Assembly: GCA_047602405.1 (NCBI GenBank)
Contig: JASGHJ010000002.1
Span: 3,008,001-3,072,000 of the forward strand
Source of the DNA: Anaeromyxobacteraceae bacterium
Lineage (GTDB): Bacteria; Myxococcota; Myxococcia; Myxococcales; Anaeromyxobacteraceae
Direction: 5' to 3'
Length of the DNA stretch: 64,000 nucleotides
Shown here: in pieces, positions 10,303-64,000 of the stretch
Layout of the letters: every line of letters begins with the position of its first letter
Numbering within the stretch: the stretch's first letter is position 1
Translations under genes and position numbers: made by a program
Notes under the pieces: generated by a model
Databases searched by the model: none
What the model was told of the DNA's origin: nothing
The model's input: only the letters and a program-made list of their open reading frames with translations

Positions 10303-10352
10303 GTCCCTCGTCTCCGGGCCCGCTTCGCGGGCCCTACGCTCGGGACGAACGG
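10303..10352 (+). repeat. Dispersed REP-like hairpin element, copy 1
   Basis: GTCCCTCGTCTCC-GGGCCCGC-TTC-GCGGGCCC-TACGCTCGGGACGAACGG; flanks shared with copies at 37683 and 63955. Confidence 0.85.
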
Positions 10353-10374
10353 AGGGGCCGCGTATACTCAGTGG

Positions 10375-10791
10375 ATGCCCCACCTCGCGTTCGAGCTGAA
10401 CTTCACGCCGTCCGCCCAGGAGAAGCGCGCCTTCGCCGCGGAGGCGGTGCGGATCTTCGCGGAGGTCATGGACACCGGGACCGACCACGTGGCGGTCACG
10501 GTGCGGACGTACGCGCCGGAGGACCTCACGTTCGGGCGCGCGGCGGCGAGCGGCGGGCGGACCGCGTTCCTCGACCTCGACCTGAGGAAGGGGCGCACGC
10601 CCGAGCAGAAACGGCGGCTCTCGCTCGCGTACATCGACGCGCTCGCCTCGCGGTTCGGGGTCGCCCGGGAAGCGGTGTACGTGATCCTGACCGAGCACGA
10701 CGGCCCGGACTTCCAGCTGTCGGATCGGGTGCTCCCGTCCTGGAGCCCGGGCGAGGATCCGCTCCGCGATCCGCCGGCCGACGGGCCCTAG
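10375..10791 (+). CDS. Tautomerase-superfamily protein (tandem 4-OT-like)
   Basis: Met-Pro N-terminus; GRTPEQKRRL...VYVILTE motif. Confidence 0.75.
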   Translation: MPHLAFELNFTPSAQEKRAFAAEAVRIFAEVMDTGTDHVAVTVRTYAPEDLTFGRAAASGGRTAFLDLDLRKGRTPEQKRRLSLAYIDALASRFGVAREAVYVILTEHDGPDFQLSDRVLPSWSPGEDPLRDPPADGP

Positions 10792-11072
10792 CGCCGCGAC
10801 CGCTCGAGCCTGGCGACCTCGCGGCGCGCCACGAGCAGGCTCGTGCCGTGGATCTCGACGTAGAGCCGGGCCGCGAGCGCGCGCTCGCCGCGGGCGAGCT
10901 GGGCGTCGACGTCGGCCATGCTCGCCTCGCCCTCCGCCGGGAGCACGCCCTGCTCGCGCAGGCGGTCCAGCCGGCGCTCCTCGCGCTTCATCGCCGCCTC
11001 CAGGATCCAGACCGCGACCGCGATGAGCGCGATGCCCACGACGAACCCGATGATCGCTCCGACGAGGCCCAT
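10788..11072 (-). CDS. Small membrane-anchored hypothetical protein
   Basis: N-terminal TM helix MGLVGAIIGFVVGIALIAVAVW; C-terminal ARLYVEIHGTSL. Confidence 0.55.
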   Translation of the reverse strand: MGLVGAIIGFVVGIALIAVAVWILEAAMKREERRLDRLREQGVLPAEGEASMADVDAQLARGERALAARLYVEIHGTSLLVARREVARLERSRR

Positions 11073-11233
11073 GCGAACCCGGGAGGACACCACGGGGCCG
11101 CCCGGAAGAAAAGCTCGTTCCGGGAGCCGATGTAGGTGCCCCACAGGGAGGTCCCCGAGCCCTGCTTGAACCGGACTCCTCGTCCCTTCGCGGACTTGCG
11201 CCTTCGCGCCCATCGCGTAGGCTCGGGGGCTGA

Positions 11234-12871
11234 ATGGGGGTCCAACGCACCGCGGCGCTCCTCGCGCTCCTCCTCGCGGCGCCCGTCCGCGGCGACGATC
11301 CCGTCGCGCGCGCGTTCGATCCGGATCCCGTCCGCTCCGCCTTCTCGATCCACGGCGACCTCGCGGTCGAGACCGCCGGCGTCGCCGAGCCCGGCGACTG
11401 GTTCCTCGCCGCCCGGCTGCAGTGGGTCGAGGGGCTCCTCGCGCTGAAGCTCGGGCCGGAGAAGGACCAGCTCCTCTCCTCGCGGCTCCAGCTCTCCCTC
11501 GGCGGCAGCCGCTCGATCGCGCTGCCGCTCGTCGGCCGCGCCGAGGTCGGCGTCGACCTCCCCATCGCGCTCTGGCAGCGCTCCGACTTCTCGCTCCTGC
11601 GCGAGCAGGGCGTGACCGGCGCGCTGCTCGATCCCATCGCGGCGTTCGCCCTGGGCGACCTGCGGCTCGGCGGGAAGGTGCCGGTGCTCCGGGCCGAAGC
11701 GACGCGGCTCGGGCTCGGGATCGCGGCGGTCGCCGAGCTGCGCCTGCCCACGGGCAACAAGCAGGCGTTCACGGGCGACGGGCTCGCCTTCCTGCCGTCG
11801 GCCGTCGCCTCCCGCGCCTTCGGCAAGCTCCGGCTCGACCTGCAGGCCGGCTACCACGCCCGGCCGCAGGGCCAGTACGCGCAGCTGGTGGTTCACGACG
11901 GGTGGACGGGCGGCCTCGGCGCCTCCCTCGCGCTCCCGCCCACCGCGCGCGTGCAGCGCTGGGAGGGGCTCGCCGAGGTGACCGGCTTCTGGCCGCGCGG
12001 CCTCACCGACGCCGGGGCCCGCTACCGCGCGGCGCTCTCCGGCCGCCTCGGCGTGCGCGCGGAGCTCGGGCCGCACACCGACCTCGAGGCCGGCCTCGGC
12101 ACGGGGCTCGGCGGCGCGGGCTACGGCCGCGAATCCTGGCGGGCCTTCGTCGGGCTCCGCTTCCGCCCGCCGCCGCCCGGCTGGACGCCGCCCCCCGCGC
12201 CGACGCCCCCGCCCGCGCCGCCCGCGATGGGCCCGCCGCCCCCGCCGGTCTCGACCCAGGCCGCGCCGGTCGAGGGCTCCGACGACGATCACGACGGCGT
12301 GCTCGTGCCGCTCGACCTCTGCCCGAACGAGCCCGGCACGCTCGAGACCGACGGGTGCCCGGACCGCGACAAGGACGGGATCCCGGATCGCGAGGACAAG
12401 TGCCCCGACGAGCCCGGCCCGGCGGTGAACGACGGCTGCCCGGTCAACGAGGACGAGCCGCTCGTCGAGATCGAGACCCAGAAGCTCACGCTGCGCGACG
12501 CGATCCAGTTCGACTTCGGCAAGGACACCATCAAGCCCGAGTCCGACCGCATCCTGAACCAGATCGCGACCCTCCTCTCGCAGAACCCGGAGGTGAAGCA
12601 CATCCGGGTGGAGGGCCACACCGACAACGTCGGCTCGCGCAGCTACAACGTCGACCTCTCGCAGCGCCGCGCCGCCTCGGTCGTGAAGGCGCTCGTCGCC
12701 CGCGGCGTGAAGCGCGGCGTGCTCTACCCGAAGGGCTTCGGCTTCGACCGGCCGGTCGCCGACAACGCGACCGCGCTCGGGCGCGCGAAGAACCGCCGGG
12801 TCGAGTTCGTGGTCGTCGACGCGTCGTCCCCCGACGCCGCGCCGGCGGACGAGCCGGCCCCGAAGCCTTGA
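11234..12871 (+). CDS. OmpA-family outer-membrane protein: beta-barrel, Pro linker, TSP3-type repeats and OmpA_C (TraB-like architecture)
   Basis: Signal peptide; DxDxDG...CP repeats; IRVEGHTD, LSQRRA and NRRVEF. Confidence 0.9.
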   Translation: MGVQRTAALLALLLAAPVRGDDPVARAFDPDPVRSAFSIHGDLAVETAGVAEPGDWFLAARLQWVEGLLALKLGPEKDQLLSSRLQLSLGGSRSIALPLVGRAEVGVDLPIALWQRSDFSLLREQGVTGALLDPIAAFALGDLRLGGKVPVLRAEATRLGLGIAAVAELRLPTGNKQAFTGDGLAFLPSAVASRAFGKLRLDLQAGYHARPQGQYAQLVVHDGWTGGLGASLALPPTARVQRWEGLAEVTGFWPRGLTDAGARYRAALSGRLGVRAELGPHTDLEAGLGTGLGGAGYGRESWRAFVGLRFRPPPPGWTPPPAPTPPPAPPAMGPPPPPVSTQAAPVEGSDDDHDGVLVPLDLCPNEPGTLETDGCPDRDKDGIPDREDKCPDEPGPAVNDGCPVNEDEPLVEIETQKLTLRDAIQFDFGKDTIKPESDRILNQIATLLSQNPEVKHIRVEGHTDNVGSRSYNVDLSQRRAASVVKALVARGVKRGVLYPKGFGFDRPVADNATALGRAKNRRVEFVVVDASSPDAAPADEPAPKP

Positions 12872-12931
12872 AGAAGCTCAGCCTTGAAGAAGCTCAGCCT
12901 TGAAGAAGCTCAGCCTTGAAGAGCCTCAGCC
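12864..12931 (+). repeat. 16-bp tandem repeat AGCCTTGAAGAAGCTC (3 exact + 1 degenerate)
   Basis: Units at 12864, 12880, 12896 and 12912, spanning the OmpA-gene stop codon. Confidence 0.9.
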
Positions 12932-12948
12932 GCGAGGAAGCGCCCGCC

Positions 12949-13572
12949 GTGAAGAAGCTCACCGTCTTCGATCTCGACGGCACCCTCGTCGACTCGGCCG
13001 CCGACCTCCACGCGTCGGTGAACCACGCGCTCGCGGCGGTGGGCCTCCCGCTCCGCACGCTCGAGGAGGTCCGCGGGTTCGTGGGCGAGGGCGCGCGACG
13101 CCTGCTCGAGCGCGCGGTCGGCCCCCGCCTCGACCTCCTCGAGCCGGCGCTCGCCGCGTGGGAGGTGCACTACGCCGCGCACATGCTCGACCGGACCCGG
13201 CTCTACCCCGGGCTCGAGGACGAGCTCGCGCGGGCGGGGCGCACGCTCGCCATCCTCACCAACAAGCCGGGGCCGGCCGCCCGGCACATCGTCGAGGGGC
13301 TCGGGCTCGGCCCCCGGTTCGCGGCGGTGGTGGGCGGCGGCGAGGCGCCCCGCAAGCCCGACCCGGCCGGCCTGCTCGCGCTCATCGCGCGGCTGGGCAG
13401 CACGCCCGCGGGGACGGTGTTCGTCGGCGACAGCGTGGTCGACGTGCAGACCGCCAGGAACGCGCGGGTCCCGGTCGTCGCCGTGACGTGGGGCTTCGGC
13501 CGGCGCGAGGACCTCGCCGGCGCCGACGTCCTCGCCGATCGCGCCGCCGAGCTCGCGCCGTTCCTGCGCTGA
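12949..13572 (+). CDS. HAD-family phosphatase (phosphoglycolate phosphatase-like)
   Basis: FDLDGTLVDS, LTNK, RKPDP and VGDS motifs. Confidence 0.9.
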   Translation: MKKLTVFDLDGTLVDSAADLHASVNHALAAVGLPLRTLEEVRGFVGEGARRLLERAVGPRLDLLEPALAAWEVHYAAHMLDRTRLYPGLEDELARAGRTLAILTNKPGPAARHIVEGLGLGPRFAAVVGGGEAPRKPDPAGLLALIARLGSTPAGTVFVGDSVVDVQTARNARVPVVAVTWGFGRREDLAGADVLADRAAELAPFLR

Positions 13573-13650
13573 GCCGCGGGGCCGGGGCCGCCGCCCCCGC
13601 GCCGGGTCCGGAAAATGGCCCGCCTCCCCCTGGGGTGGTATCGCTCGTCC

Positions 13651-13983
13651 ATGTTCCGGCTCCTCCTGAAGCTCGCGCTCGCCGGCGCCTTCCTCTTCGC
13701 CCTCTGGACCTGGGTCCCGCTCGGAGGCCGCACGCTCGCCCAGCGCTGGCGCGCCGCCGCGACCCCCATGGACTTCGTCCGGGGCGGGCTCGCCGACGCC
13801 GGCGTGGGCGGCGACGCGGCCGAGCACGAGAAGCCGCGGACGTCGCCGCAGGCCCGCGCGGGCGGGAGGTCGCGGGTGGACGCCGCGTCGCGCGAGCGCG
13901 CCCCGGAGCGCGTCACCGAGGCCGAGCGCCGGGCGCTCGATCGCCGGCTCGCCGACGAGCTCGCGCGAGACGGCCAGAAGTAG
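13651..13983 (+). CDS. Hypothetical membrane-anchored protein
   Basis: N-terminal hydrophobic helix; GC3-rich codons. Confidence 0.6.
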   Translation: MFRLLLKLALAGAFLFALWTWVPLGGRTLAQRWRAAATPMDFVRGGLADAGVGGDAAEHEKPRTSPQARAGGRSRVDAASRERAPERVTEAERRALDRRLADELARDGQK

Positions 13984-14085
13984 CGAACACCGTACGGAGC
14001 CGGTCGCCCGCGCGCCTTGCCGGCGGGTGCGAGCCGTCCCCACCCTGTGATCCGGGGCCCGCGCACGCGGGCGGGGGGAGGACGG

Positions 14086-15186
14086 ATGGGGGCGTGGCTC
14101 CACGCGCTCGGGCTCGCGGCCGCGCTGGCGGCACCGCCCGACGCGCCGTTCTGGCGCGAGGCCGTTCCGCAGCCGGCGGCGATGGCGCCGCCCGCGGCGA
14201 CCGCCGGCGGCCTCCCCGAGCTCTCCCGCATCGCCCGGGAGGCGCTGCCCTCCGTGGTCGGCGTCACGACCACCCAGGGCCGCCCGCCCGGCGCCACCGA
14301 CGCGCAGCTCCGCGAGCTCCTCGACCGGCTCCACGACGGGCCGCGCAAGGGGGTCGGCTCGGGCTTCGTCATCCACCCGGACGGCTGGGTCCTCACGAAC
14401 GCGCACGTGGTCGAGGGCGCGGACCGGGTGGAGGTCGACGTCTCCGGCCGCACGCTCGAGGCGCGCGTGGTGGGCCTCGACTCCGAGTCGGACATCGCGC
14501 TCCTCAAGGTCGACCCCGACCGCCCGCTGCCCGCGCTCGTGCTCGCCGACTCCGACCGGCTCGCCATCGCCGACTGGGTGATGGTCATCGGCAGCCCCTT
14601 CGGGCTCGTCCGCTCCGTGACCTTCGGGATCGTGAGCCAGCTCGGGCGCAGCGACGTCTCGCCGGTGGGACGCCCGGGCTCCTACGAGTTCGTGCAGACC
14701 GACGCGTCGATCAACCCGGGCAACTCGGGCGGCCCGGTCCTCAACCTGCGCGGGGAGGTCGTCGCGATCGCGACGGCGGTGAACGCGACCGGCCAGGGCA
14801 TCGGCTTCGCGGTGCCGATCAACATGGCGAAGGCGGTCCTCGGGCAGCTGCGCGCGTCCGGGAAGGTGGTGCGCAGCTGGCTCGGCCTCGCCGTGAAGGC
14901 GCCGGAGCCCGAGGGCGAGGGGCTCGTGGTGACCGAGGTCGACGCCGCGGGCCCCGCCGCGGGCGCGGGGCTCAAGGTCGGCGACGTGATCACCGGCTTC
15001 CAGGGGCGCCCGGTCGCGACGCCGGCGCGGCTGCGCTGGTTCGTGTCGACCGCGGGCGTGGGGCGGGCGATCGAGCTGCGGGTGCGCCGGCCCGGGCAGC
15101 CGGACCGCACCGTGCGGGTCGGGCTCGTCGCGACGCCGTCGGGCGAGGAGGTCCGCGCGCAGGCACGCCAGGCCGCCGGGCCGTGA
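14086..15186 (+). CDS. HtrA/DegP-like serine protease with PDZ domain
   Basis: GSGFVI, LTNAHVV, DIALLK and TDASINPGNSGGP motifs. Confidence 0.92.
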   Translation: MGAWLHALGLAAALAAPPDAPFWREAVPQPAAMAPPAATAGGLPELSRIAREALPSVVGVTTTQGRPPGATDAQLRELLDRLHDGPRKGVGSGFVIHPDGWVLTNAHVVEGADRVEVDVSGRTLEARVVGLDSESDIALLKVDPDRPLPALVLADSDRLAIADWVMVIGSPFGLVRSVTFGIVSQLGRSDVSPVGRPGSYEFVQTDASINPGNSGGPVLNLRGEVVAIATAVNATGQGIGFAVPINMAKAVLGQLRASGKVVRSWLGLAVKAPEPEGEGLVVTEVDAAGPAAGAGLKVGDVITGFQGRPVATPARLRWFVSTAGVGRAIELRVRRPGQPDRTVRVGLVATPSGEEVRAQARQAAGP

Positions 15187-15223
15187 GCCGGGGCCGCGCG
15201 CGAGCGCGGGGTGGCGCGGTCCT

Positions 15224-15259
15224 CCGGGGGCGGCCGGCACGCGGCCGCTAGAGCACCGG
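15224..15259 (-). promoter_or_regulatory. Candidate bacterial SECIS element
   Basis: Minus strand: TGA CCGGTGCTCTA GCGGCCG CGTGC CGGCCGC CC CCGG. Upper stem begins 11 nt after UGA; loop has G then U at positions 2-3. Confidence 0.5.
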
Positions 15260-15743
15260 TCAATTCTCGACGACCGTGCTCCGGAGGAATCGGGTACCCA
15301 CTCGCGAGGCAGTCCGCCTCCGAGCGGAGCGTGTTCGGGGCGTAGTCGCGCGGGACCACCACGTAGTTGAAGAGCCAGAGCGGGCTGTACTTCTCCATGC
15401 CCGGCACCGAGTCGTAGATGTTGTACTGGCCCGGGACGCGCTCCGGCTCGCGCACCGGCTTCCCGTCCGGGCCGAGCTCCACCGCGTACACCACCTGGTA
15501 CTCCATCGCGACCTTGAGCCGCGCGGGATCGACGTCGAGCTCGCCCTGCTCGATCGCGTAGACGATCTTCCCCTCGAACCAGACCCGCTCGACCTCGAGC
15601 CGGTACGGGTTCGAGTAGGTCAGGGTCGAGGTGCCGTCCGCGCGGTAGGCCCCGGCCCGGGGCGCGGGGCCGGGCGTGCCGCCGTCGATCGACCAGACGC
15701 CCTCCTCCTCGCCCGGGGTGACGCCGCCATCGTGCTCGCTCAT
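15248..15743 (-). CDS. YSPLW-motif protein of unknown function (DUF7482-like); +1 frameshift at ~15288; candidate selenoprotein (TGA at 15262-15260)
   Basis: GQYNIYDSVPG..YSPLW..VPRDYAPNTLRSE. Removing one base at GAATC gives SGYPILRSTVVEN-TGA-PVL-TAG (495 nt, 165 codons). Confidence 0.65.
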
Positions 15744-15799
15744 GGCGGGCAATCTGGCCACCGGCCCGGGCCTTCACCACCCGCGGCGCGCCGGCCCGC

Positions 15800-17077
15800 T
15801 CAGGGGACGAAGTAGAACGACCGGCGGCGGACGAGCGCGGTCGTGACGAAGGCCTCCCCGTCGACGCCGTCGATGCGGGCCTCCACGAACGCGCTCGCCG
15901 CGCCGATGCCGGCCCAGGTCGTGTCGAGGTCGAGGAAGCGGACCTCCGCCGACTCGGTGATGGTGGCGTAGCCCGCGGGCGGCGCCTCGAAGCCGGCGAA
16001 CCAGGTGGTCGTCCCGGGCGACGCGCTCCACTCGAGCCGGAGCGGCCCCGCGGCGCTCACCGTCTCGAACTCGGCGGGCTTCTCGACGGAGAACTCGGCC
16101 GGCATCGTGAAGACCCGCCCGCGGGAGGTGTTCGCGGCGGTGACCGAGACGAGCACCTGCCCGCCGGGGCGGACGAGCGCGGTGTCGGCCTCCGACAGGC
16201 GGAAGGCGCCCCAGCCGGCGTCCCAGGGGATGCGCCGCCCGTTCACGCTCACGACGGCGTCGGGGTACGAGGAGACCGCGAGGCTCGTGACCCGCAGCTC
16301 CACCTGGAGCCGCGTGCCGTCGAGCGCGACGGTCCCGTCGTAGCCGAAGCCGGGGGGGCCGTCGGAGGGGAGCTCGCCGGAGAGGCCGCAGACCGGATCG
16401 AGGAGGAACGTGAGCCAGCCCGCGAGGCAGACGAAGGCGTCGTAGACCGGGCCGCCCTCGGTGAGCGAGAGCCGCACGCGCGTGTCGAGCGGGACGACCG
16501 CGGCGTCGTCGGCGCCCGCCGCCTTCACGAGGTTGAGCCCGGGCGAGAGGCCGGTCCCGGCCGGCTGCGCGCGGTCCACGTAGACGAGCGCGAAGGTCGA
16601 GGCCGGGTCGCCGAGCAGCGAGGACCCGATGATCCGGTCCACCGGCTTCCCGTACCGCGGGATGGGCGCGAGGCGCCGGTCGCCGTCGAGGTCCTGGTAG
16701 GCGAGCAGCACGCCGAACGCGCCGCGCCCGAGGAGCCCCTCGCCGAGCGGCGCGAGGGCGGCCGCGGGCGGCGGGCCGTAGAGCGGGAAGCGGAAGTCGA
16801 CCGGGAAGGTGCCCTCGGCCTCGACCTCCTCGGTGACGATCGCCGGGGGCGCGTCCGCCGCGGACGGATCCGCCGCGGCGAGCCACTGCGGGTACCAGGC
16901 GACCGCGAGGCGCACGGGCCCCTTCACGTCCACGCCGGGCGCCGGGACCATGCTGCCCGAGAGCGCGCCGAGCGGGACGCCGCGGTAGCTCGCGTCGACC
17001 AGCCGGTCGCCGCAGGCCGGGAGGAGGACGGCGAGCGCGAGGGCCAGGGTGAGGGGGTGGGACGCGCGGTTCTTCAT
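15800..17077 (-). CDS. Lipoprotein of unknown function
   Basis: Lipobox LPAC; AYQDLDGD EF-hand-like motif; last gene of the ECF operon. Confidence 0.75.
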   Translation of the reverse strand: MKNRASHPLTLALALAVLLPACGDRLVDASYRGVPLGALSGSMVPAPGVDVKGPVRLAVAWYPQWLAAADPSAADAPPAIVTEEVEAEGTFPVDFRFPLYGPPPAAALAPLGEGLLGRGAFGVLLAYQDLDGDRRLAPIPRYGKPVDRIIGSSLLGDPASTFALVYVDRAQPAGTGLSPGLNLVKAAGADDAAVVPLDTRVRLSLTEGGPVYDAFVCLAGWLTFLLDPVCGLSGELPSDGPPGFGYDGTVALDGTRLQVELRVTSLAVSSYPDAVVSVNGRRIPWDAGWGAFRLSEADTALVRPGGQVLVSVTAANTSRGRVFTMPAEFSVEKPAEFETVSAAGPLRLEWSASPGTTTWFAGFEAPPAGYATITESAEVRFLDLDTTWAGIGAASAFVEARIDGVDGEAFVTTALVRRRSFYFVP

Positions 17078-18667: not shown

Positions 18668-19440
18668 GGGGCCTTCCTCAGGCGCAAGGTGGAGACGGTG
18701 CAGCCGTCGCAGGCGAGCACGGGCTCGGGCCGGCGCGCCTGGGCGCGGAGGGCCTCGAGGAGCGGCGCCGCCTCGAAGGGCCTCGTCGAGAAGACCGCGA
18801 AGACGAACTCCGGGCCGGGCGCGTCGTCGAGCACGACGGAGCCGGGCAGGAACTCGCGCTGGCCCGCCTTCTGCGGGGCGGCCGCCCCGGCGCCGTAGGG
18901 GTGGAGCACCGCGGCGGCGCCGCGGCCGTCGAGCTCGAGCACGAGGAGGAAGCCGTCCTGCGGCGCCTCGTAGGAGAAGCGCAGCGCGTCGCCCGCCCGG
19001 ACGACCGCGTCGTTCGCGGCGAGCTCCGGCGCGCCCTGCCCGCCGCGCGCGACCGCGACGCGGAAGCCGTCGCCCTTGAGCGTGACCCCGGGGGACGTGG
19101 CCGGGCCGCCGAGGAGCCGCGGCGCGATCAGGGCGACGAGCGCGAGCGGGAGGGCGAGCCCGAGCGCGGGCACGAGGCGGCGGAGGAGCGGAGGCCGCGC
19201 CGGGGCGGCCGCGGCGCTCGCCTCGCGGCGCTCGAGCTGGCGCAGGAACCGGTCCGCGGGCCGGGCCCGGCGGAAGGCGTCGGCCTCGGCGCGGAGCGCC
19301 TGGAGCTGGGCCGCGCAGGCCTCGCAGCCGGCGGCGTGGGCCTCGACGCCGGGCGGCGCGGCCTCGCCGGCCGAGAGGGCCTCGAGGACGGCGGCCGGCG
19401 GACACGCCGGGCCGCGGACGGAGGGAGGGATCGGGCTCAT
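18664..19440 (-). CDS. Zn-finger anti-sigma factor with TM helix and DUF4384-like periplasmic domain
   Basis: HAAGCEAC (HxxxCxxC); TM helix; GDALRFSY...GSVVLDDAPGPE. Confidence 0.8.
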   Translation of the reverse strand: MSPIPPSVRGPACPPAAVLEALSAGEAAPPGVEAHAAGCEACAAQLQALRAEADAFRRARPADRFLRQLERREASAAAAPARPPLLRRLVPALGLALPLALVALIAPRLLGGPATSPGVTLKGDGFRVAVARGGQGAPELAANDAVVRAGDALRFSYEAPQDGFLLVLELDGRGAAAVLHPYGAGAAAPQKAGQREFLPGSVVLDDAPGPEFVFAVFSTRPFEAAPLLEALRAQARRPEPVLACDGCTVSTLRLRKAP

Positions 19441-21867: not shown

Positions 21868-21888
21868 GCAGCCATTCCTGGGAGTGAA

Positions 21889-22432: not shown

Positions 22433-22437
22433 GACAC

Positions 22438-22471: not shown

Positions 22472-22497
22472 TCACCTCTGGAGCAGGTGCGCCGGAC

Positions 22498-35621: not shown

Positions 35622-37598
35622 TCAGACCCGCTCGCTGCGCCTCCTCCCGAACTGGCCGTCCTTCCAGACGACGCCGTTCACGCGGAACTCGACGGCGTCG
35701 GGGAAGATGCCGGTGATGGTCGCGAAGCCCTCGTGGACCACGACGAGGTGGTGGTAGGCGCAGAGCGGCATCCGGTTCCAGTCGTCCTCCGAGCCGCCGC
35801 GGCTGCGAAACTCGATGTGGTGGCCCTGGCAGCTCCGGCGGCTGCAGCCCGGGAACTGGCAGCGCCGGTACTTCGCGCGCTGCTTCTGGGAGACGGTCTT
35901 CGGCTTCGTGCGCTCGTTGCACCAGGCCTGGATGAAGTGGCGGGCGAGCTCGCCGAGGAAGGGTCCGTCGAGGCGGGGCTCGGCGGGCGGCTCGGCGGGC
36001 GGCTTCGGCGTTCCCTTGTCCTTCCCGTGCTTTCCGTCGTGCTCGCACCCATCCACGCAGGGGGCTGATTCCTCTGTGGGGCGCTCCTCCGGCACCCGCC
36101 TCATCAGCGACACCTGGAACGCCTGCTCGAGCAGCACCGCGACGCTCCGCGGCACCCGGGCCTCGAAGAACTTCAGCGCAGACATCTGCGCGTCGGACTT
36201 CGCCTGGATCGCCTCCCGGAGCTCGATGACCGTGAGCTTCTCGGCCCGCTGCGCCATCTGGAGGAGGTCGACCTGGGGCACCTCCTTCAGGAGGAGGAGC
36301 TTCGAGTAGGTGAGCCCCATCTCCTTCGCGATCCGGAGCTCCGGCTTCTCCCAGAGGTGCTTCTCGAGCGCGGCGCGGGTCTCGATGGTGCGGGCCGGGA
36401 CCCCGAGGCGCTCGGTCGCGTAGTGCCGGAAGTCCACGAACCCCGCCTCGCGGTGGGTGTGCGTGCCCTTCACGACGGCCGAGCACCACCCCATGAAGTC
36501 GTCCCAGGCCTTGAGCTCGGAGGCGATGCCGAGGCCCGTCGCCATGAGCTCGTCGTCCGTGGCGAGGGCGTTCGGATCGACGTCGAGGGCCGCGACGGCG
36601 TGGACCGGGTCGAGGTACTCCCAGTGGGAGGTCTCGTCCTCGAGCTTCGCCTCCGCGGCGTCGCGCTTCGTCTGGACGTCGAGCGGGTGGAGCCGCCGCT
36701 CCACCGCCCGCTCCGCCTCGGCGGCGACCGACTCGTCTCCCGGGTGCTCCGACAGGTACTCCTGCGCGAGCGCCTCGAGCTGCACGTGCCGGTGCGAGCT
36801 CTCGACGAGCTCGCCCGCGAGGGCCATGGCGCTGCGGAGATCCGCGTGGTCCTCGTCGGAGATCGGCACGCGCAGCCGGACCCACGGCTCCTCGTCCGCC
36901 TCCGCCTGCTCTGCGGCCGCATCCGGCCCCGGCAGCGACTTCCGCTCCTTCAGGGCCTCCTTCACGAGCTGCTTCAGCTTCCGGACCGGCTGGACCTTCG
37001 CCTCCTCCACCCAGCGCTCCTCGTCGTCGCCGGCCGCGACCGGCAGGACCGCGAGCGCCGCCGACGGGGTCACGAGCCCCTCGTACGCAGCGGCCCTCAG
37101 CAAGGGCCGCTCCCGGAGCGCCTTCGCGAGCTGCGCCGCCACCTGCGCCGCGCGCCGGCGGACGCCGAAGAGGTTCTCGGTGAGGTCGCCGAGGTTCGAG
37201 AACCCCTGCCGGGCGAGGCGGTCACCCTCCGTGAACGTGGCGAAGATCGCGCCGAGGCTGAGCTCGAGCGCGCTGCGCATGCAGGCGGCCTGCGCGAGCG
37301 CGCGCTCGAACTTCTCCGGGCCGCCCTCGCCGCGGAGGACCAGCTCTCGAAGCTCGAGCATCGTGAAAGACGGGTACTCCCAGCGCGGCGCGTGCAGGTC
37401 CCAGCGCTCGCGGAGCGGATCCCCGCGGGCGGGTTCGTTCGCGGCGGCTACGGTCGCGGCGGCTACGGTCGCGGCGACTACGGTCGCGGCGGGTTCGTTC
37501 GCGGCGGCGTCGTTCGCGGCCGCGCCCGTCGGCTCGGCACCCGGAGTGAACTCCGGGAGCGCCGCAGCGACGAGCTCGCTGGCCGTGCACGCGTCCAT
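35622..37598 (-). CDS. Large protein with C-terminal HNH endonuclease domain (DUF222/HNH-like)
   Basis: CQFPGC..CQGHHIEFRSRGGSEDDWNRMPLCAYHH; low-complexity repeat near the N-terminus. Confidence 0.8.
   Translation of the reverse strand: MDACTASELVAAALPEFTPGAEPTGAAANDAAANEPAATVVAATVAAATVAAANEPARGDPLRERWDLHAPRWEYPSFTMLELRELVLRGEGGPEKFERALAQAACMRSALELSLGAIFATFTEGDRLARQGFSNLGDLTENLFGVRRRAAQVAAQLAKALRERPLLRAAAYEGLVTPSAALAVLPVAAGDDEERWVEEAKVQPVRKLKQLVKEALKERKSLPGPDAAAEQAEADEEPWVRLRVPISDEDHADLRSAMALAGELVESSHRHVQLEALAQEYLSEHPGDESVAAEAERAVERRLHPLDVQTKRDAAEAKLEDETSHWEYLDPVHAVAALDVDPNALATDDELMATGLGIASELKAWDDFMGWCSAVVKGTHTHREAGFVDFRHYATERLGVPARTIETRAALEKHLWEKPELRIAKEMGLTYSKLLLLKEVPQVDLLQMAQRAEKLTVIELREAIQAKSDAQMSALKFFEARVPRSVAVLLEQAFQVSLMRRVPEERPTEESAPCVDGCEHDGKHGKDKGTPKPPAEPPAEPRLDGPFLGELARHFIQAWCNERTKPKTVSQKQRAKYRRCQFPGCSRRSCQGHHIEFRSRGGSEDDWNRMPLCAYHHLVVVHEGFATITGIFPDAVEFRVNGVVWKDGQFGRRRSERV
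37428..37520. repeat. In-frame 15-bp-based repeats in the HNH gene (ATVAA / AANEP units)
   Basis: TACGGTCGCGGCG x3 flanked by two copies of GCGGGTTCGTTCGCGGCGGC. Confidence 0.8.
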
Positions 37599-37682
37599 GC
37601 CCGCGATCCTGCCACCCCGGTCTGACGGTGAGATCGCACGATCCGGCTGGGGCTCAGGGCTGATCTGAGCCCCCGGACCCCT

Positions 37683-37732
37683 GTCCCTCGTCTCCGCCCC
37701 CGCTGCGCGGGGGCTACGCTCGGGACGGACGG
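37683..37732 (+). repeat. Dispersed REP-like hairpin element, copy 2
   Basis: GTCCCTCGTCTCC-GCCCCCGC-TGC-GCGGGGGC-TACGCTCGGGACGGACGG. Confidence 0.85.
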
Positions 37733-54158: not shown

Positions 54159-54165
54159 GGCAGCG

Positions 54166-56685: not shown

Positions 56686-56812
56686 TCACCGGCATCATGG
56701 CCGGGGCGCGCCCGCGGTTCTTTCGCGTTCTTGCACGGCCTGGGCGATCCCTGCGAAGCCCAGCGGAGCGGGTCCGGGGAGAGGCCCGTGGAGGCTGCTC
56801 CACGGGGAGGGG

Positions 56813-58141
56813 CTATGCCCCCTCCGGCGTACCGAAGACGCGCCCGAAGATGTAGTCCACGTGGCGCATGTGGTGGTCGAGGTCGAAGCAGGCGTCGATC
56901 TCGGCCGCGGAGAGGTGCCTCGCGACGTCGGCGTCGGCCCGGAGGGCGGTCTTGAAGTCGACCTTCTCCTCCCAGACCTTCATCGCGTTCCGCTGGACGT
57001 AGACGTAGCCCTCCTGGCGGGCGACGCCCTTGTTCACGAGCGCGACCAGCACCCGGCCGGTCTCGTAGAGGCCGCCGGTGAGGGCGAGGTTCTCCCGCAT
57101 GCGCTCCGGGTAGACCCGCAGGCTCTCCATCATCCCGGCGAAGCGGTGCAGCGAGAAGTCGAGCGTGACCGTGGCGTCGGGGCCGATGACCCGCTCGACC
57201 GACGAGTGGCTGATGTCGCGCTCGTGCCAGAGCGCCACGTCCTCCATCGCGGCGACCGACCAGGCGCGCAGGAGGCGGGCCTGGCCGGTGAGGTTCTCGG
57301 AGAGGATGGGGTTCCGCTTGTGCGGCATCGCGGAGGAGCCCTTCTGCCCCGGGGTGAACGGCTCCTCGGCCTCGCGGACCTCGGTGCGCTGGAAGTGGCG
57401 CACCGCGGTGGCGTGCTGCTCGAGGGTCCCGCCCGCGAGCGCGAGCGCGGTGAAGTACTCGGCGTGCCGGTCGCGGTTCACGACCTGGGTGGCGGCCCCC
57501 TCGGCGCCCTCGAGGCCGAGCCGCTCCATCACGAAGGCCTCGACGCGCGGGTCGAGCGACTGGAACGTGCCGACCGCGCCGGAGATCTTGCCGACCGCCA
57601 CGGTGCGCCCGGCGCGCTCGAGGAGCGACCGGCGCCGGGTCCAGGCGTCGTACCAGCCCGCGAGGACGAGGCCGAAGGTGGTGGGCTCGGCGTGGATGCC
57701 GTGGCTGCGGCCCATGAGCGGCGTCCGCCTGTGCTCGAACGCCCGCTTCTTCAGCGCCGCGAGGACGCGGTCCATGCCCGAGAGCAGGAGCGCGGTCGCC
57801 TCCTTCAGCTGGACGGCGAGCGTCGTGTCGAGGACGTCGGAGGAGGTCATCCCCTTGTGCAGCTGGCGCGCGGGGGCGCCGCCCTTCTCCTCGGCCCAGG
57901 TCAGGAACGCGATGACGTCGTGCTTGACCGTCCGCTCGATCTCGTCGATGCGCGCGACGTCCGCCGCCGTGAAGGCGTAGCCGTCGAAGGTCTTCTTCAG
58001 CGCGGCGAGGTCCTCGGCCGGCACCTCGCCGAGGCGGACCATCGCCTCGCAGGCGGCCAGCTCGACGTCGAGCCAGATCCGCAGGCGCCGCTCCGGCGCC
58101 CAGATGCGAGCCATCTCGGGTCGGGTGTAGCGCGGGATCAT
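56813..58141 (-). CDS. purB: Adenylosuccinate lyase
   Basis: MIPRYTR, GRSHGIHAEP, GSSAMPHKRNP and WHERDISHSS. Confidence 0.96.
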   Translation of the reverse strand: MIPRYTRPEMARIWAPERRLRIWLDVELAACEAMVRLGEVPAEDLAALKKTFDGYAFTAADVARIDEIERTVKHDVIAFLTWAEEKGGAPARQLHKGMTSSDVLDTTLAVQLKEATALLLSGMDRVLAALKKRAFEHRRTPLMGRSHGIHAEPTTFGLVLAGWYDAWTRRRSLLERAGRTVAVGKISGAVGTFQSLDPRVEAFVMERLGLEGAEGAATQVVNRDRHAEYFTALALAGGTLEQHATAVRHFQRTEVREAEEPFTPGQKGSSAMPHKRNPILSENLTGQARLLRAWSVAAMEDVALWHERDISHSSVERVIGPDATVTLDFSLHRFAGMMESLRVYPERMRENLALTGGLYETGRVLVALVNKGVARQEGYVYVQRNAMKVWEEKVDFKTALRADADVARHLSAAEIDACFDLDHHMRHVDYIFGRVFGTPEGA

Positions 58142-58165
58142 GGCGGGCTCCTCGAGGGCGGAGGT

Positions 58166-58612
58166 TCAGTGCTTTCCGGTCGACCCGAAGCCGCCGGCGC
58201 CGCGGCCGGTGTCGGTGAGCTCGTCGACGAGCTCGACCTCGGCCTGCACCACGGGGGCGACCACGAGCTGGGCGATGCGCTCGCCGCGGGCGAACGAGAC
58301 CGGCACCTGCCCGTGGTTCACGAGCAGGACGCCGATCTCGCCGCGGTAGTCCGCGTCGATGGTGCCAGGCGCGTTCACCATGCCGACGCCGTGGCGGGCG
58401 GCGAGGCCGGAGCGCGGCCTCACCTGCCCCTCGTGCCCGGGCGGCAGCTCGACGGCGAGCCCGGTGGGGACGAGCCGCCGCTCGCCGGGGGCGAGGGCGA
58501 CGGGCTCGTCCGCGCGGAGATCCATCCCGGCGGCGCCGGGCGTCTCGTAGCGGGGGAGGTCGAGCGGCGGGCCGCGCTGGCCGACCCGCCGGAACCTGAC
58601 CTTCACCGTCAC
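58166..58612 (-). CDS. dut: dUTP diphosphatase
   Basis: [28 protein letters not shown] and [10 protein letters not shown]. Confidence 0.96.
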
Positions 58613-58624
58613 GCGGCGGATCCC

Positions 58625-60787
58625 TTACGACTTCGCCGGCTCGGCCGGGGCGGCGCCGCCCGAGGCCTTCGCGGCGTCGGCGAGCGCCTCCTTGCGGGAG
58701 AGGCGGATCTTCCCGGCGCGGTCGACCGAGATGACCTTCACCATGACCTCCTCGCCCTCGCTGAGCACGTCGGAGACGTTCTTCACGCGCTTGTCGGAGA
58801 GCTCGGAGACGTGGATGAGGCCGTCGGTGCCCGGGAACAGCTCCACGAAGGCGCCGAACTCCACGATCTTGCGCACCGTGCCCGTGTAGATGCGGCCGAC
58901 CTCGGCCTCCTGGGTGAGGGCGCGGATCATCTTGATCGCCTCCTCCACCTTCTCGTTGTTCGAGGAGGCGATGGAGACCGAGCCGTCGTCCTCGATGTTG
59001 ATCGAGGTGCCGGTGCGGGCGGTGATGTCCTTGATGGTCTTGCCGCCGGGCCCGATGATGTCCTTGATGCGCTCCGGGCGGATCTTGATGGTGGTGATCC
59101 GCGGCGCGTAGACGCTGATGGACTCGCGGGTCTTCGGGAGCGCCTTCAGCATCTCGCCGAGGATGTGCTTGCGGCCCGCGGCGGCCTGGTTGAGCGCCGT
59201 CTCGAGGATCTGCCGGGTCACGCCGGTGATCTTGATGTCCATCTGGATGGACGTGATGCCCGCGGCGGTGCCGCAGACCTTGAAGTCCATGTCGCCGAGG
59301 TGGTCTTCGTCGCCGAGGATGTCGGACAGGATGGCGATCTTCTCGCCCTCCTTGATGAGGCCCATCGCGATGCCGGCGACCGGCGCCGAGATCGGCACGC
59401 CCGCGTCCATGAGCGACAGGCAGCCGCCGCAGACCGAGGCCATCGAGGAGGAGCCGTTCGACTCCATGATGTCGGAGACGATGCGGACCGTGTACGGGAA
59501 CTTGTCCTCGGCCGGCATGACGTAGCGGAGCGCGCGCTCCGCGAGGGCGCCGTGGCCGATCTCGCGCCGGCCCGGGGAGCGGAGGAACTTCGCCTCGCCG
59601 ACGGAGAACGGCGGGAAGTTGTAGTGCAGCATGAACTTCTTGAAGATCATGCCGGTGAGCATCTCGACGCGCTGCTCGTCCTCGGAGGTGCCAAGGGTCG
59701 TGGCGACGAGCGCCTGCGTCTCACCGCGCGTGAAGAGGGCCGAGCCGTGCACGCGGGGGAGGAGCCCCACCTCGGAGGTGATCTTGCGGATGTCGGTCGG
59801 GCCGCGCCCGCCGATCCGCCGACCCTCGTCGGTGATCATCTTGCGCATGTATTCGTACTTCACGTCCTCGTAGTAGCCCTTGATCTCCTTCTCGCGGGCC
59901 ACGACGGCGGCGAGCTTCGCGGCGTCGCCGGCGGCCTCTTCCTTCAGGGCCGCCATCAGCTCCTTCTTGATCTCCGAGAGCCGGCCGTAGCGGTCGTGCT
60001 TCTCGTTGCGGGCGTAGGCCTCCTTCGTCTTCTCCCACGTGAGGGCCTTCACCTTGGCCTTCAGGTCCTCGTCCGCCTTCGGCGGCTCGAAGGCGCGCTT
60101 CGGCTTCGCGCCGAAGGCCTTCGCGAGCGCCTCCTGGGCGTCGAGCAGGTCCTTGATGGCCGCCTGGCCGAAGAGGAGGGCCTCGATCATCACGGCCTCG
60201 GAGACCTCCTTCGCACCGCCCTCCACCATGACGATGGCGTCGCGGGAGGCGGCCATGACGACGTCGAGGTCGCACTCGGCGCGCTGCGCGATGGTCGGGT
60301 TCGCGATCAGCTCGCCGTTGAGGCGGCCGACGCGGACGCCGGCGATCGGGCCGTTGAACGGCACGTCCGAGCACTGGAGCGCGGCGGAGGCGCCGGTGAG
60401 CGCCAGCACGTCGGTGTCGTTCTCCTGATCGAAGGAGATGACCGACGCGATGATCTGCGTCTCGTTGGCGTAGCCCTCCGGGAAGAGCGGCCGGCACGAG
60501 CGGTCGACGATGCGCGAGGTCAGCGTCTCCTTCTCGGTCGGGCGGCCCTCGCGGCGGAAGAAGCTGCCCGGCACCTTGCCGGCGGCGAAGAGCTTCTCCT
60601 GGTAGTCGACCGTGAGCGGGAAGAAGTCGATGCCCTCCTTCTTCTCGGCGGCGGACACGACGGTCACGAGGACGATCGAGTCGCCCTGGCGGACCCAGAC
60701 CGAGCCGTGCGCCTGCTTGGCGATCTTGCCCGTCTCGAGCAGGATCTCCTTGCCGCCGACCTTGGCGGTCTTCTGGATGGGATTCAC
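58625..60787 (-). CDS. pnp: Polyribonucleotide nucleotidyltransferase
   Basis: [24 protein letters not shown] and GDMDFKV; KH and S1 domains; GTG start. Confidence 0.97.
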
Positions 60788-61016
60788 GAATGCACCTTTC
60801 CGGCCCCCTGGCGCATCGAGCGCCGTCCGTGGGGGCCATGGGCCCGCGTGGCCGACCGAGCTCGGGGCCCGGGAGGTGCCTCTGTTCCTCACTGCGCGTC
60901 CCGTCTGCGGACGGGGGGCGGAGTCGGAAACGGAGGTTCTCCCCTCGGGTCCCTCGCGCGCCCCGGCCGTGCGAGCGCGTTCACTGCTTGTACGCCTCCG
61001 TACCCCGGAAGCGCTT

Positions 61017-61043
61017 GCGCCCCGGTCGAGGTGACCGGGGCGC
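61017..61043 (-). terminator. Hairpin downstream of rpsO
   Basis: GCGCCCCGGTC-GAGGT-GACCGGGGCGC. Confidence 0.55.
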
Positions 61044-61057
61044 CGCCCGCACGTCCG

Positions 61058-61324
61058 CTACTTGCGGATGCCGAGCTTGTCGATGAGGGCCTTGTAGCGG
61101 GCCTCGTCGGTCTTGTGCAGGTAGTCGAGCAGCCGGCGCCGCTGGCCGACGAGCTTCAGGAGCCCGCGGCGGCTGTGGTGGTCCTTCTTGTGCGTCTTGA
61201 AGTGCTCGTTCAGGTACGCCATGCGCTCGGTGATGAGCGCGACCTGGACCTCGGGCGAACCCGTGTCCTTGTCGTGCTGCTTGAACGTCTTGACGAGCTC
61301 CTGCTTCTTGTCCGGGGTGATCAC
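61058..61324 (-). CDS. rpsO: 30S ribosomal protein S15
   Basis: [13 protein letters not shown] and [25 protein letters not shown]. Confidence 0.97.
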
Positions 61325-61468
61325 CTAAGCTGTCCTTTGCCTTGCTGACTGGGCCGTTCCCGAGGGAACGACCGGGTTGATCGGCGAGCCGCCGCGGGGG
61401 CCAAGGTCGGGCCGCGGGCGCCAGTCCGCCGAGTGAGGACGGGGATTTACGCGATCCCGGGTCCCCCG

Positions 61469-62389
61469 TCAACCGCCCGGAGGCGGCTCCGGAGGGAAGC
61501 CCCGGACCGGCCGCGCCCCGCCCCCGGAGATGGGCTTCAGGACCGCCACGAGCGTCCCGTCCGGGAGGAGCGCCCGCAGCAGCGGCCCGGGCGGCACCGG
61601 CCGCCTCAGGAAGCGGCCGCACCACAGGTCCTGGGCCTCGCCGGCATCGACCGGGACCGCCGGCAGGAGCCGGAGCGCCTCGCCCGCGGGCAGGAGCCGG
61701 CGGCGCAGGGCATCCGGGTCGGCCCGACCCAGGGCGAGGGCCTCCTCGAGCGGGATCGCGATTGAGAGGTCGAAGCCGGACGCCTCGGTGCGGCGGAGCC
61801 CGGCCAGGTGGGCGGGGACGCCGAGCCGACGGCCGAGCTCGGCGGCCAGGGTGCGCACGTAGGTGCCCTTGCCGCAGCGGACGGCGAGCCTCGCGACGAG
61901 GTGCCCGGCCGCGGGCGCCGGCGCGAGCTCCACGAGCTCGAGCGCGTGCACCACCACCCGCCGCGGCGTGCGGTCGACCTCCTCGCCGGCGCGCGCGGCC
62001 TCGAAGAGGCGGCGGCCGCCGACGCGGACCGCCGAGTACATCGGGGGCACCTGGTCGAGCTCGCCGACGAGGCCGGGGAGCGCCGCGCGGAGGGCGGCCT
62101 CCGTCACGGCGGACGGGTCACCGCGCTCGACGACCTCGCCCTCCCCGTCCTCGGTGGTGGTCGAGGTGCCGAACGCGACGGTGGCGAGGTACGCCTTGTC
62201 GCCGTCGGTGAGGTACTGCTGCAGCTTCACGGCGTCGCCGACGCACACCGCGAGCACGCCGGTGGCGGTCGGGTCGAGCGTGCCGGCGTGGCCGGCCTTC
62301 GCGGCGCCGAGCGCGCGGCGGACCTCGGCCACCACCTCGTGGCTGGTCGGGCCGGCCGGCTTGTCGATGACGAGGAGTCCACCCTTCAC
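61469..62389 (-). CDS. truB: tRNA pseudouridine(55) synthase
   Basis: DKPAGPTSH, GHAGTLDP, QVPPMYSA and CGKGTYVR. Confidence 0.96.
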   Translation of the reverse strand: MKGGLLVIDKPAGPTSHEVVAEVRRALGAAKAGHAGTLDPTATGVLAVCVGDAVKLQQYLTDGDKAYLATVAFGTSTTTEDGEGEVVERGDPSAVTEAALRAALPGLVGELDQVPPMYSAVRVGGRRLFEAARAGEEVDRTPRRVVVHALELVELAPAPAAGHLVARLAVRCGKGTYVRTLAAELGRRLGVPAHLAGLRRTEASGFDLSIAIPLEEALALGRADPDALRRRLLPAGEALRLLPAVPVDAGEAQDLWCGRFLRRPVPPGPLLRALLPDGTLVAVLKPISGGGARPVRGFPPEPPPGG

Positions 62390-62399
62390 GGCGTGGCCT

Positions 62400-62762
62400 T
62401 CACTTGCCCGCGTCCTTCTCGCGCGCCTCCTTGAGGAGGCGCTCGATGCGGTCGCCGCGCTCGACCGACTCGTCGTAGACGAAGCGCAGGTGCGGGGTGT
62501 GGCGCAGGCGCAGGTTCCGCGAGACCTCGCGCTGGAGGAACCCTGCAGCGGCGGCGAGCCCCTGCATGGTGCGGTCGCGCTCGGCCTCCGGCGCGTGGAT
62601 GGAGACGTACACGGTCGCCTCGCGCAGGTCGGGCGACATCTTCGCGCCGGTGACGGTCACGAACCCGGTGACGCGCGGGTCCTTGATGCCGCCCCTCGCG
62701 AGGATGGCGGTGAGCTCGTGCCGGAACTCCTCGGCGACGCGGGCGGGGCGATCGTGGGCCAT
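62400..62762 (-). CDS. rbfA: Ribosome-binding factor A
   Basis: IKDPRV, MSPDLREA and LRHTPHLRFVYDES. Confidence 0.95.
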   Translation of the reverse strand: MAHDRPARVAEEFRHELTAILARGGIKDPRVTGFVTVTGAKMSPDLREATVYVSIHAPEAERDRTMQGLAAAAGFLQREVSRNLRLRHTPHLRFVYDESVERGDRIERLLKEAREKDAGK

Positions 62763-62770
62763 GTGCGGTT

Positions 62771-63145
62771 CTACCTCGGGTTCTCGTCGTCGTCGCGCCA
62801 GCCGTCGACGTCGGCCAGCGTTCCACCGCCGCCGTCCGTGCCGAGGCCGTCCGGGTAGGACTCGACCTCCACGTCCTGCCCGGTGATCATGATCTGCCCG
62901 CCGTGCATGGAGCCGACGAAGTCGGCCACCTTGTCGAGCGACTCGCGCACGAACGCGGCGTCGTTGCCCACCGCGGTCACGCCCACCACGCTCTTCTGCC
63001 ACAGGTCGTTCTCGGCGACCTCGGCGATCGAGACGTTGAACTTCGCCTTCACCCGGTCGATGGCCGAGCGCACGAGGTGGCGCTTCGACTTCAGGGAGCC
63101 GGGCTCGGGCAGGTGGAGGGTGAGGCGCAGCACGCCGACGAACAT
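62771..63145 (-). CDS. DUF503 (YlxP) family protein
   Basis: SLKSKR and FNVSIAEV..NDLWQ motifs; usual position upstream of rbfA. Confidence 0.9.
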   Translation of the reverse strand: MFVGVLRLTLHLPEPGSLKSKRHLVRSAIDRVKAKFNVSIAEVAENDLWQKSVVGVTAVGNDAAFVRESLDKVADFVGSMHGGQIMITGQDVEVESYPDGLGTDGGGGTLADVDGWRDDDENPR

Positions 63146-63204
63146 TGGGGGGCGGAGTCTAATCCTTCCGGGGGCTCAAGTCAGGAGGAACGGACTGCCG
63201 CCCC

Positions 63205-63546
63205 TCACTCCAGCCGCCGCGACACGAGCAGCACCTCCATCTCGCCCATCGAGCACTCCTCGCTCGACACCGGGTTCACCGTGATCACCTCCAGGATCCC
63301 GCCGGTGCGCAGGAAGAACCGGATGTCGTGGACCTGGGTGAAGCGGTCCTTCCCGTCGTCGCCGGAGGCGAGGCGGGTCACCTCGGTGCGGTCGAGGTCG
63401 ACGGCGGTCCGCTCCGCGAGGCCGGCGTCCACCACGGCGTCGAGGGCGAACCGCGCCGGGAAGCGACCCCGGCCGGTGCAGTCGGGCGGCTCGGCCCGGG
63501 CGGTGGCGGCGAAGAAGAAGGCGAGCGTCGCGAGCTTCGTGCGAAT
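63205..63546 (-). CDS. Small secreted hypothetical protein (start codon unclear)
   Basis: Signal-like RTKLATLAFFFAATARA-EPPDC; EVITVN..SSEECSM; GC3-rich only in this 3' part of the longer ORF. Confidence 0.5.
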   Translation of the reverse strand: MRTKLATLAFFFAATARAEPPDCTGRGRFPARFALDAVVDAGLAERTAVDLDRTEVTRLASGDDGKDRFTQVHDIRFFLRTGGILEVITVNPVSSEECSMGEMEVLLVSRRLE

Positions 63547-63858
63547 GTCCTCGGGGAGCGCAGCTTCCGGGCCGGGGCGGCGAACGCGAGGCGGTGCGAG
63601 CGGTTGCGCGAAGATGTGGCCGGCGGGACGCACGGTGTCTCTCGCCGGATGGAGCGAGGCCGAGAACCGGCACGCAAGCCGCCGTGGCACTCCGCCGTCC
63701 CCACCCTCCTTCGGAGGCGAGAGACAGAGGCGGGGGACCGGTCCTCGGGGGCGTGCAGCTTCACGCAGAGTCACTCCCGCCAGCGGGAGTAACTGGATGT
63801 TCTGGGTGCCGTGCCACCCGCCCTCGAGATCTGCCGAATTCAAGATGGGCGTGGGGCC

Positions 63859-63970
63859 GCCCCTCGTCTCCGCTGCCCCTCGTCTCCGCTGCCCCTCGTC
63901 TCCGCTGCCCCTCGTCTCCGCTGCCCCTCGTCTCCGCTGCCCCTCGTCTCCGCTGCCCCTCGTCTCCGCT
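63859..63970 (+). repeat. 7x 16-bp tandem repeat GCCCCTCGTCTCCGCT
   Basis: Units at 63859, 63875, 63891, 63907, 63923, 63939 and 63955. Confidence 0.95.
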
Positions 63971-64000
63971 GCCGCTTCGCGGCAGCTACGCTCGGGGTGA
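63955..64000 (+). repeat. Dispersed REP-like hairpin element, copy 3 (runs to the window edge)
   Basis: GCCCCTCGTCTCC-GCTGCCGC-TTC-GCGGCAGC-TACGCTCGGGGT. Confidence 0.85.

Follow-up and report, generated by a model that had tools for sequence, protein, structure and literature searches.

Ssn nucleases are defined as cd10448 proteins with SRM repeats (Chenal et al. 2025, PMC11893778), and the consulted sections of that paper describe them as the first site-specific single-stranded DNA (ssDNA) endonucleases and tie them to one domain family. Among them, SsnA is the Neisseria meningitidis enzyme with NTS/SRM hairpin repeats, and its sole in vivo role shown in the same sections is to lower transformation by NTS-bearing DNA. 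Here, a dispersed hairpin repeat is analyzed, three copies of which lie in a stretch of 64,000 nt (the window) of contig JASGHJ010000002.1, positions 3,008,001 to 3,072,000, from an Anaeromyxobacteraceae bacterium (assembly GCA_047602405.1; genome G000, 6.16 Mb, 74% GC). The densest cluster of copies, located outside the window, surrounds a gene for a standalone GIY-YIG protein of 102 amino acids (aa). The repeat is likely the ssDNA recognition site of this nuclease, and cuts that the enzyme would make, followed by their repair, probably account for its spread. Support for this explanation was counted from the copy number, the covariation, the GNA loops, the clustering, the layout shared across bacteria, the catalytic residues, and the fast and imprecise turnover. 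An earlier note, drawn from the window alone, had suggested an element like the repetitive extragenic palindromes (REPs), with a fixed loop and covarying stems, read as ssDNA or RNA by a nuclease; clustering at the GIY-YIG gene and the GNA loops now make the ssDNA form of that suggestion probable.

A structure-aware detector found 297 matches in the genome, 278 long and 19 minimal, and none in the reversed genome. At least three of these are chance hits in coding DNA and a few overlap, leaving about 290 copies; the 297 matches fall into 264 clusters and the copies are mostly single. A scan of the window found exactly three copies, those already listed in the earlier note, with the positions and stems given there. 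The two fixed motifs occur exactly at 108 places, at 101 of which the inner stem has at least five pairs in a search that required no pairing, so that pairing at motif matches is far beyond chance. Among the 278 long copies 170 different inner stems were observed. The 66 distinct stems of 8 bp comprise 528 cells, and Watson-Crick pairs fill 512 of them, compared with a mean of 328 and a maximum of 355 over 1000 shuffles, a contrast to be read with the detector's own preference for paired stems in mind; the remainder includes 7 G-T and 4 A-C cells. Positions 1 and 4 of the outer stem also covary (C-G/T-A), and the covariation of inner and outer stems is strong. The earlier description of covarying stems around a fixed loop sequence therefore stands, while the selection to which they had been ascribed is one possible origin beside palindrome-correcting mutation. 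Other details of that description changed. Conservation of the outer stem covers 4 bp, a fifth pair being Watson-Crick in just 144 of 278 copies; the internal loop, previously called invariant, has one position occupied by A or T (47% and 50%); and the element, approximately 6 nt longer than had been drawn, reaches to an unpaired tag that is conserved (CCGYTC on the minus strand, GAACGG on the plus strand).

Of the two strands, the minus strand, opposite to the one previously chosen, is probably the informative one. Its consensus starts with CCGYTCR and the first arm of the 4-bp outer stem, continues with GAGCGTA, a variable inner stem of 7-8 bp and a C-GNA-G triloop, and closes with GGAG(A/T)CGA, the second arm of the outer stem, and RC. 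On this strand the triloop is GNA in 174 of 210 cases; a d(GNA) loop with a C-G closing pair forms an exceptionally stable DNA hairpin, according to the sections seen of PMC3201870, and this predominance therefore indicates a DNA hairpin. Upstream of the nuclease gene, this is also the strand facing the gene. Nearest-neighbour DNA folding gave similar energies for both strands (-17.9 vs -18.0 and -16.2 vs -16.1 kcal/mol), hence the strand was assigned from the loop sequence and from the way copies are oriented relative to the nuclease gene. In the minimal forms 2 nt replace the apical stem, so the tag, short stem and GAGC/GWCGA loop constitute the core, and the apical stem is a dispensable module. 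Arm stutters were found with a loose pattern in the 3' arm of 10 and the 5' arm of 30 of the 278 long copies. Nested elements, in which one hairpin forms the apical stem of a hairpin on the opposite strand, occur in G000 and at loci of the sister genome G026. Some copies are enclosed by longer GC-rich inverted repeats that recur elsewhere, and a seven-copy tandem array with a period of ~157 bp has no adjoining nuclease gene. Inspection of 200-kb bins revealed no obvious replication-strand bias.

The position of the copies relative to genes was analyzed with 5112 predicted genes from a home-made gene caller. Convergent gaps hold 102 of the 241 intergenic copies, an enrichment over the 334 convergent gaps among 2815 background gaps, and divergent gaps hold 23 (797 of 2815 in the background); copies often lie near stop codons. 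Such placement might suit a repeated structured RNA element (mRNA stabilizer, terminator or small RNA) whose covariation reflects RNA structure, a reading that the earlier note had offered, and the sequence does fold well as RNA: against shuffles, copies 1 and 2 were better (z -4.0 and -3.0), with z -2.5 for copy 3. This reading is nevertheless highly improbable, since Rfam gave no match at gathering score in the window or in 18 loci apart from one chance hit (E 7.7) off the element, copies take both orientations to genes (73 vs 43 in tandem gaps), G-U type pairs are rare, the loops are of the DNA-type GNA class, no U-tract is present, terminator-like sites number 0 in the eight-copy locus, and sites turn over quickly. 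A secondary effect of the repeat on mRNA is possible. No tRNA or tmRNA was found in the window.

The candidate nuclease is one of three GIY-YIG matches in the genome. Eight copies surround its gene. Six of them precede it on the same strand, an inverted copy follows directly downstream, and the eighth lies beyond that one; by number of flanking copies the gene ranks first of all predicted genes. A look for enrichment next to GIY-YIG genes, which had been recommended as a check, was thus positive, and the same layout recurs in relatives. The protein exceeds the PF01541 cut-off. An alignment of 62 homologues shows no variation at G19, H31, E64 and W70, and conservation of 90% or more at Y7, Y17 and R27; Y7, Y17 and E64 correspond to the tyrosines and the glutamate in Ssn proteins, and SsnA requires Y6, Y17 and E64, as stated in the sections of PMC11893778 used here. 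By this alignment, the catalytic residues are intact. An alignment-based structure model has the GIY-YIG fold (pLDDT 89) and replaced a poor single-sequence model (pLDDT 66) that had no fold match; the best PDB matches, by structure and by sequence alike, are UPF0213 proteins, then HIGLE and Slx1. A separate YhbQ-like gene in the genome has no hairpins.

The linkage between gene and hairpin was then followed through 92 genomes of the family. Matches of at least 84 bits number 19 and occur in 18 genomes, above a near-universal second tier of at most 57 bits. Family hairpins lie within 700 bp in 18 of 18 top-tier loci, compared with 0 of 12 YhbQ-like second-tier loci. The repeat is expanded in all 18 carriers and in 12 of 74 non-carriers (Fisher p 1.5e-11, a value overstated by the non-independence of kin and by thresholds chosen after the counts were seen); within the genus, the figures are 14 of 14 and 9 of 23. 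The gene itself is patchy and found at differing sites among genomes. In a wider set of metagenome, plasmid and other-phylum loci, from which duplicates, three unsuitable rows and loci with less than 200 nt of flank were dropped, a hairpin lies within 300 bp of 62 of 69 genes of this type, an optimistic count, and on both sides in 45 of 69; the comparison groups gave 2 of 32 for YhbQ-like genes, 9 of 21 for the Ssn group and none for reversed flanks. In these loci, where the hairpins are related ones, a copy typically precedes the gene by 20-60 nt and an inverted copy directly follows the stop codon. G026 has a second gene, 58% identical, that is flanked by another hairpin subtype, and the same site in G000 holds a solo hairpin; its neighbours are genes that we take to be MoxR-like and DUF58-like. 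The subtype of the window has 103 matches in G000 and 72 in G026, and at most one in each of the other 90 genomes; these are sister genomes and the two carriers of this nuclease lineage, and shared ancestry alone could explain the confinement. When five relatives were searched for a site lacking the nuclease cassette, the matches were confined to the conserved gene next to it. Very large expansions of the minimal form occur in G025 and G009, with 650 and 314 pattern matches against 0 and 7 for controls. A candidate for a decayed nuclease in genome G001 was rejected as unrelated.

Turnover of sites was analyzed by comparing G000 with G026 over ~2.4 Mb of the roughly 6.0 Mb of the latter, in DNA about 94% identical. 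For 124 of the 264 G000 clusters both flanks were found: 53 sites are empty in G026, 45 hold a copy in the same orientation, 21 one in the opposite orientation, and 5 a large insert. The reverse comparison, with 135 sites, gave 58, 46, 19 and 12, respectively. At shared single sites of the same orientation the inner stems differ in 24 of 39. Target DNA of at least 3 nt was replaced at 63 of 70 usable sites, and duplications were seen at two (8 and 19 nt). Among usable cases, 41 of 75 have the 3' junction between -5 and +8 nt from the element end, and just 14 of 70 have the 5' junction within 8 nt. Two of the window's own copies illustrate these changes: the site of copy 1 holds in G026 a different, opposite-facing copy within an insert of ~690 bp in the orthologous gap, and that of copy 3 holds one copy without the stutter. 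Turnover of sites is fast and imprecise. By analogy with SsnA, the junction pattern would fit cutting in the variable flank on the 5' side of the hairpin and then sloppy joining. In the process proposed here, DNA that is single-stranded, during replication or repair or as incoming DNA, would be bound by the protein at the fixed tag and the internal loop of one strand and cut beside the hairpin, by analogy with SsnA. Less securely, the cut strand bearing the hairpin may then be joined into new sites by illegitimate recombination with replacement of some target DNA, and copies may persist where they do little harm, namely in convergent gaps and flexible protein loops. The dense filled and empty sites of two sister genomes make nuclease-driven spread of a repeat directly testable.

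Mobility is the weakest part of this explanation, and several points weigh against the explanation as a whole. In the single-contig genomes G001 and G006, which lack a gene of this type, 42 and 60 long copies were counted, so that the repeat either outlives the gene or has another mover. The wider-set detector was written after the flanks had been viewed, and the group profiles were built partly from the same rows; moreover, the Ssn-group genes near hairpins in that set have hairpins with this internal loop, which is therefore not unique to the group. Monophyly of the protein's own group is weak (SH-aLRT 86, and not one clade with a UvrC outgroup). Junction calls are noisy at ~6% divergence, 19 and 14 of 89 alignments having failed; filled and empty sites are unpolarized, and the empty ones could be deletions. 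Finally, a role of SsnA in repeat spread is itself a hypothesis in the sections of PMC11893778 consulted. An alternative is a nuclease that recognizes the hairpins without moving them, as a domesticated ssDNA restriction or repair enzyme, the spread being due to host slippage, gene conversion and palindrome correction. Expansions in genomes without the gene, the common arm stutters and nested copies, the differing inner stems at shared sites and the restriction of the in vivo evidence on SsnA to transformation are all in keeping with it. It is unlikely, however, because the gene is always accompanied by expansion, is patchy and occupies different sites, and because new insertion at coding sites requires an end-forming step.

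Such coding sites are not rare. Copies overlap predicted genes in 56 cases, 35 of them deep inside, of which 3 are false, and about 30 are in frame. Five intragenic copies correspond to an insert absent from the G026 orthologue with both frames open (Table 1), and in-frame copies imply remodelling of proteins by the repeat. Copy 2 has a different setting. As the earlier note said, it lies 85 bp from the ATG of a 658-aa open reading frame (ORF), which was described there as a large HNH gene; the HNH match is weak (PF01844, E 0.0065) and below the cut-off. Of the gene's 11 close paralogues, 8 are preceded on their own strand, at a distance of ~90 bp, by an identical hairpin; the two paralogues observed in G026 are preceded by different hairpins. 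The unit of ~1.9 kb consists of a conserved leader of ~60 bp and a gene of 600-660 aa, with similarity from about the hairpin to the stop codon. From sequence, it looks like a mobile gene without terminal repeats, of which the hairpin either sets the 5' end or rides along. The expected enrichment next to HNH genes is accordingly real as a link and secondary in extent, involving less than 5% of copies. As a general mover the HNH-like gene was rejected, covering 9 of 297 matches, with 3 of the 11 close paralogues lacking a hairpin. Within the 5' part of the ORF, short tandem repeats encode an Ala-Thr-Val-Ala-Ala run.

Table 1. Coordinates of the repeat copies and associated features (window positions unless a genome and contig are named).
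Feature	Position	Strand	Remarks
Hairpin copy 1	10303..10352	-	GACGA subtype; GAA triloop on minus strand; 1 nt past stop codon of HD-domain gene
Hairpin copy 2	37683..37732	-	GCA triloop; within repeated unit of hairpin, leader and HNH gene
Hairpin copy 3	63955..64000	-	GAA triloop; final 4 nt outside window end
Stutter before copy 3	63860..63955	-	Six additional tandem copies of a 16-nt piece of one copy-3 arm
658-aa multicopy gene	35622-37598	-	Weak C-terminal HNH match; context of copy 2, main partner elsewhere
Tandem repeats in HNH-like ORF	37446-37495		5' part of ORF
HNH units	window 35622-37732; G000:C1:210209, 427933, 1657427; C2:657798, 1175894, 2197583, 2562885, 2830469, 2927628, 3330398		Paralogue comparison
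102-aa GIY-YIG gene	G000:C1:1892788-1893096	-	Outside window
Intragenic copies absent from G026 orthologue	G000:C1:848467, 1646850, 2082182, 2299366; C2:3532036		
Nested elements	G000:C1:1586748, 1646850, 1678705		Also at G026 loci
Copies within GC-rich inverted repeats	L163; G000:C1:1608994, 1765166; C2:3556855		
Seven-copy tandem array	G000:C2:3676093-3677034		

Among known repeats, the GTAG/CGTC-tagged REPs, with their mosaic elements (BIMEs) and RAYT transposases, resemble the present one in being short tagged palindromes with complementary stem variants, located downstream of genes and sometimes within them (PMC3733652, as far as its text was available); they differ in that the repeat here is unlinked to Y1 transposases and seldom in dimers. 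A GTAG-type REP moved by a RAYT or Y1 HUH transposase would explain the GTAG found on the minus strand at the base of the inner stem, with its last G paired, and the genome has six weak PF01797 matches. Even so, this is the least probable of the alternatives: just one of the six Y1 loci, to which the earlier note had thought a link might exist, has even a single copy within 1.5 kb, GTAG is absent from the minimal forms, the copies are mostly single and seldom dimeric as in REPs, and insertions are imprecise. The Y1/HUH genes themselves (L001-L006) are divergent, three of them nearly identical, and unlinked to the repeat. The suggestion of a miniature inverted-repeat transposable element was likewise abandoned, as the asymmetric ends form no terminal inverted repeats and target duplication is not regular. 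In-frame insertion in genes recalls the Rickettsia palindromic elements (RPE) mentioned in the introduction of PMC3733652, a likeness of behaviour, the sequences being uncompared. Neither Anaeromyxobacter nor the repeat motifs were found in the text or four supplements of PMC3733652, its family-consensus figure lying outside that coverage; the consulted parts of RepRanger (PMC12306157) and PMC5217627 gave no match to the repeat, and searches on motif strings in the open literature gave papers that are unrelated by title.

A broader proposal, put forward tentatively, is that a second widespread branch of standalone GIY-YIG proteins, filed with UPF0213/YhbQ, may consist of site-specific ssDNA nucleases that read a hairpin whose internal loop, GAG/TCGA, is fixed and write copies of it genome-wide, into genes and onto the 5' ends of other mobile genes, and that Ssn may stem from within this branch. 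If true, selfish units of nuclease plus hairpin would have a longer history and a wider range than those described so far, and an entire set of orphan palindromes in bacteria would be accounted for. If the group cuts its own hairpins, the pool of site-specific ssDNA endonucleases and specificities would be wider, and the common unannotated intergenic palindromes of myxobacteria and other groups would have a cognate enzyme. The UPF0213/YhbQ/YazA proteins (PDB 1zg2, 1ywl) provide the best sequence and fold matches of the 102-aa protein; unlike the patchy, hairpin-flanked genes of this type, YhbQ-like genes are near-universal in the family and rarely flanked. UPF0213, cd10456, YhbQ and YazA are unmentioned in the main text of PMC11893778, as far as it was covered.

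The closest described system remains Ssn/SRM. In both, a standalone GIY-YIG gene of ~100 aa lies between oriented hairpins that number hundreds of mostly intergenic copies, with a 5' tag before the stem, purine-C after it, and matching catalytic residues. This common gene size and layout would be expected if the locus were an ordinary Ssn/SRM system whose repeat had drifted past the published pattern and whose protein were a divergent cd10448 member. Furthermore, Ssn reference proteins match the 102-aa gene at E 1e-9 to 7e-12, near the paper's loose cut-off of 1e-10, so members of this nuclease group may be in its loose homologue set; Ssn rows nest inside the protein's own group in a quick tree with a UvrC outgroup (SH-aLRT 90 and 93, unstarred support); and the same internal loop occurs in the hairpins of some acidobacterial Ssn-group genes. 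That possibility is a slight one, because the protein scores 147 against the profile of its own group, built without it, 94 against that of YhbQ/YazA and 63 against that of Ssn, and because in a quick tree of 127 rows, with 17 short or duplicate rows left out, the 21 Ssn rows form a separate long branch (support 100), apart from the 26 YhbQ/YazA rows and from the 75-row group that includes the protein. Quick trees from alignments of 97-98 columns thus place the protein outside the Ssn branch, with NTS-flanked genes of N. gonorrhoeae and A. lipoferum 4B as proxy references and the deeper order unresolved. The published SRM pattern has no match within 700 bp of the gene, lies within 30 nt of 26 of the 297 copies, and occurs 72 times genome-wide, where the chance level in congeneric genomes is 68-110. 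In the table of PMC11893778, within the portion consulted, SRM enrichment is 0.44-0.78 for the four Anaeromyxobacter genomes listed, all of which fail the strict cd10448 test. As a separate observation, Ssn-group genes, mostly of Acidobacteriota (L385-L387, L389, L396, L400, L401, L403), have TGTCAT-tagged flanking hairpins with the same GAGC/GTCGA loop and long apical stems, and the published pattern misses these hairpins. Compared with SRM, the repeat described here is longer, at ~50 nt, its internal loop is fixed, its apical stem is dispensable, and its tag is CCGYTC instead of HGTC, while the putative nuclease scores nearer to UPF0213/YhbQ profiles than to Ssn. With the SRM pattern at chance level and the protein outside the Ssn clade, nuclease and repeat apparently represent an undescribed sister of Ssn/SRM, which likely works, by analogy, in an Ssn/SRM-like manner.

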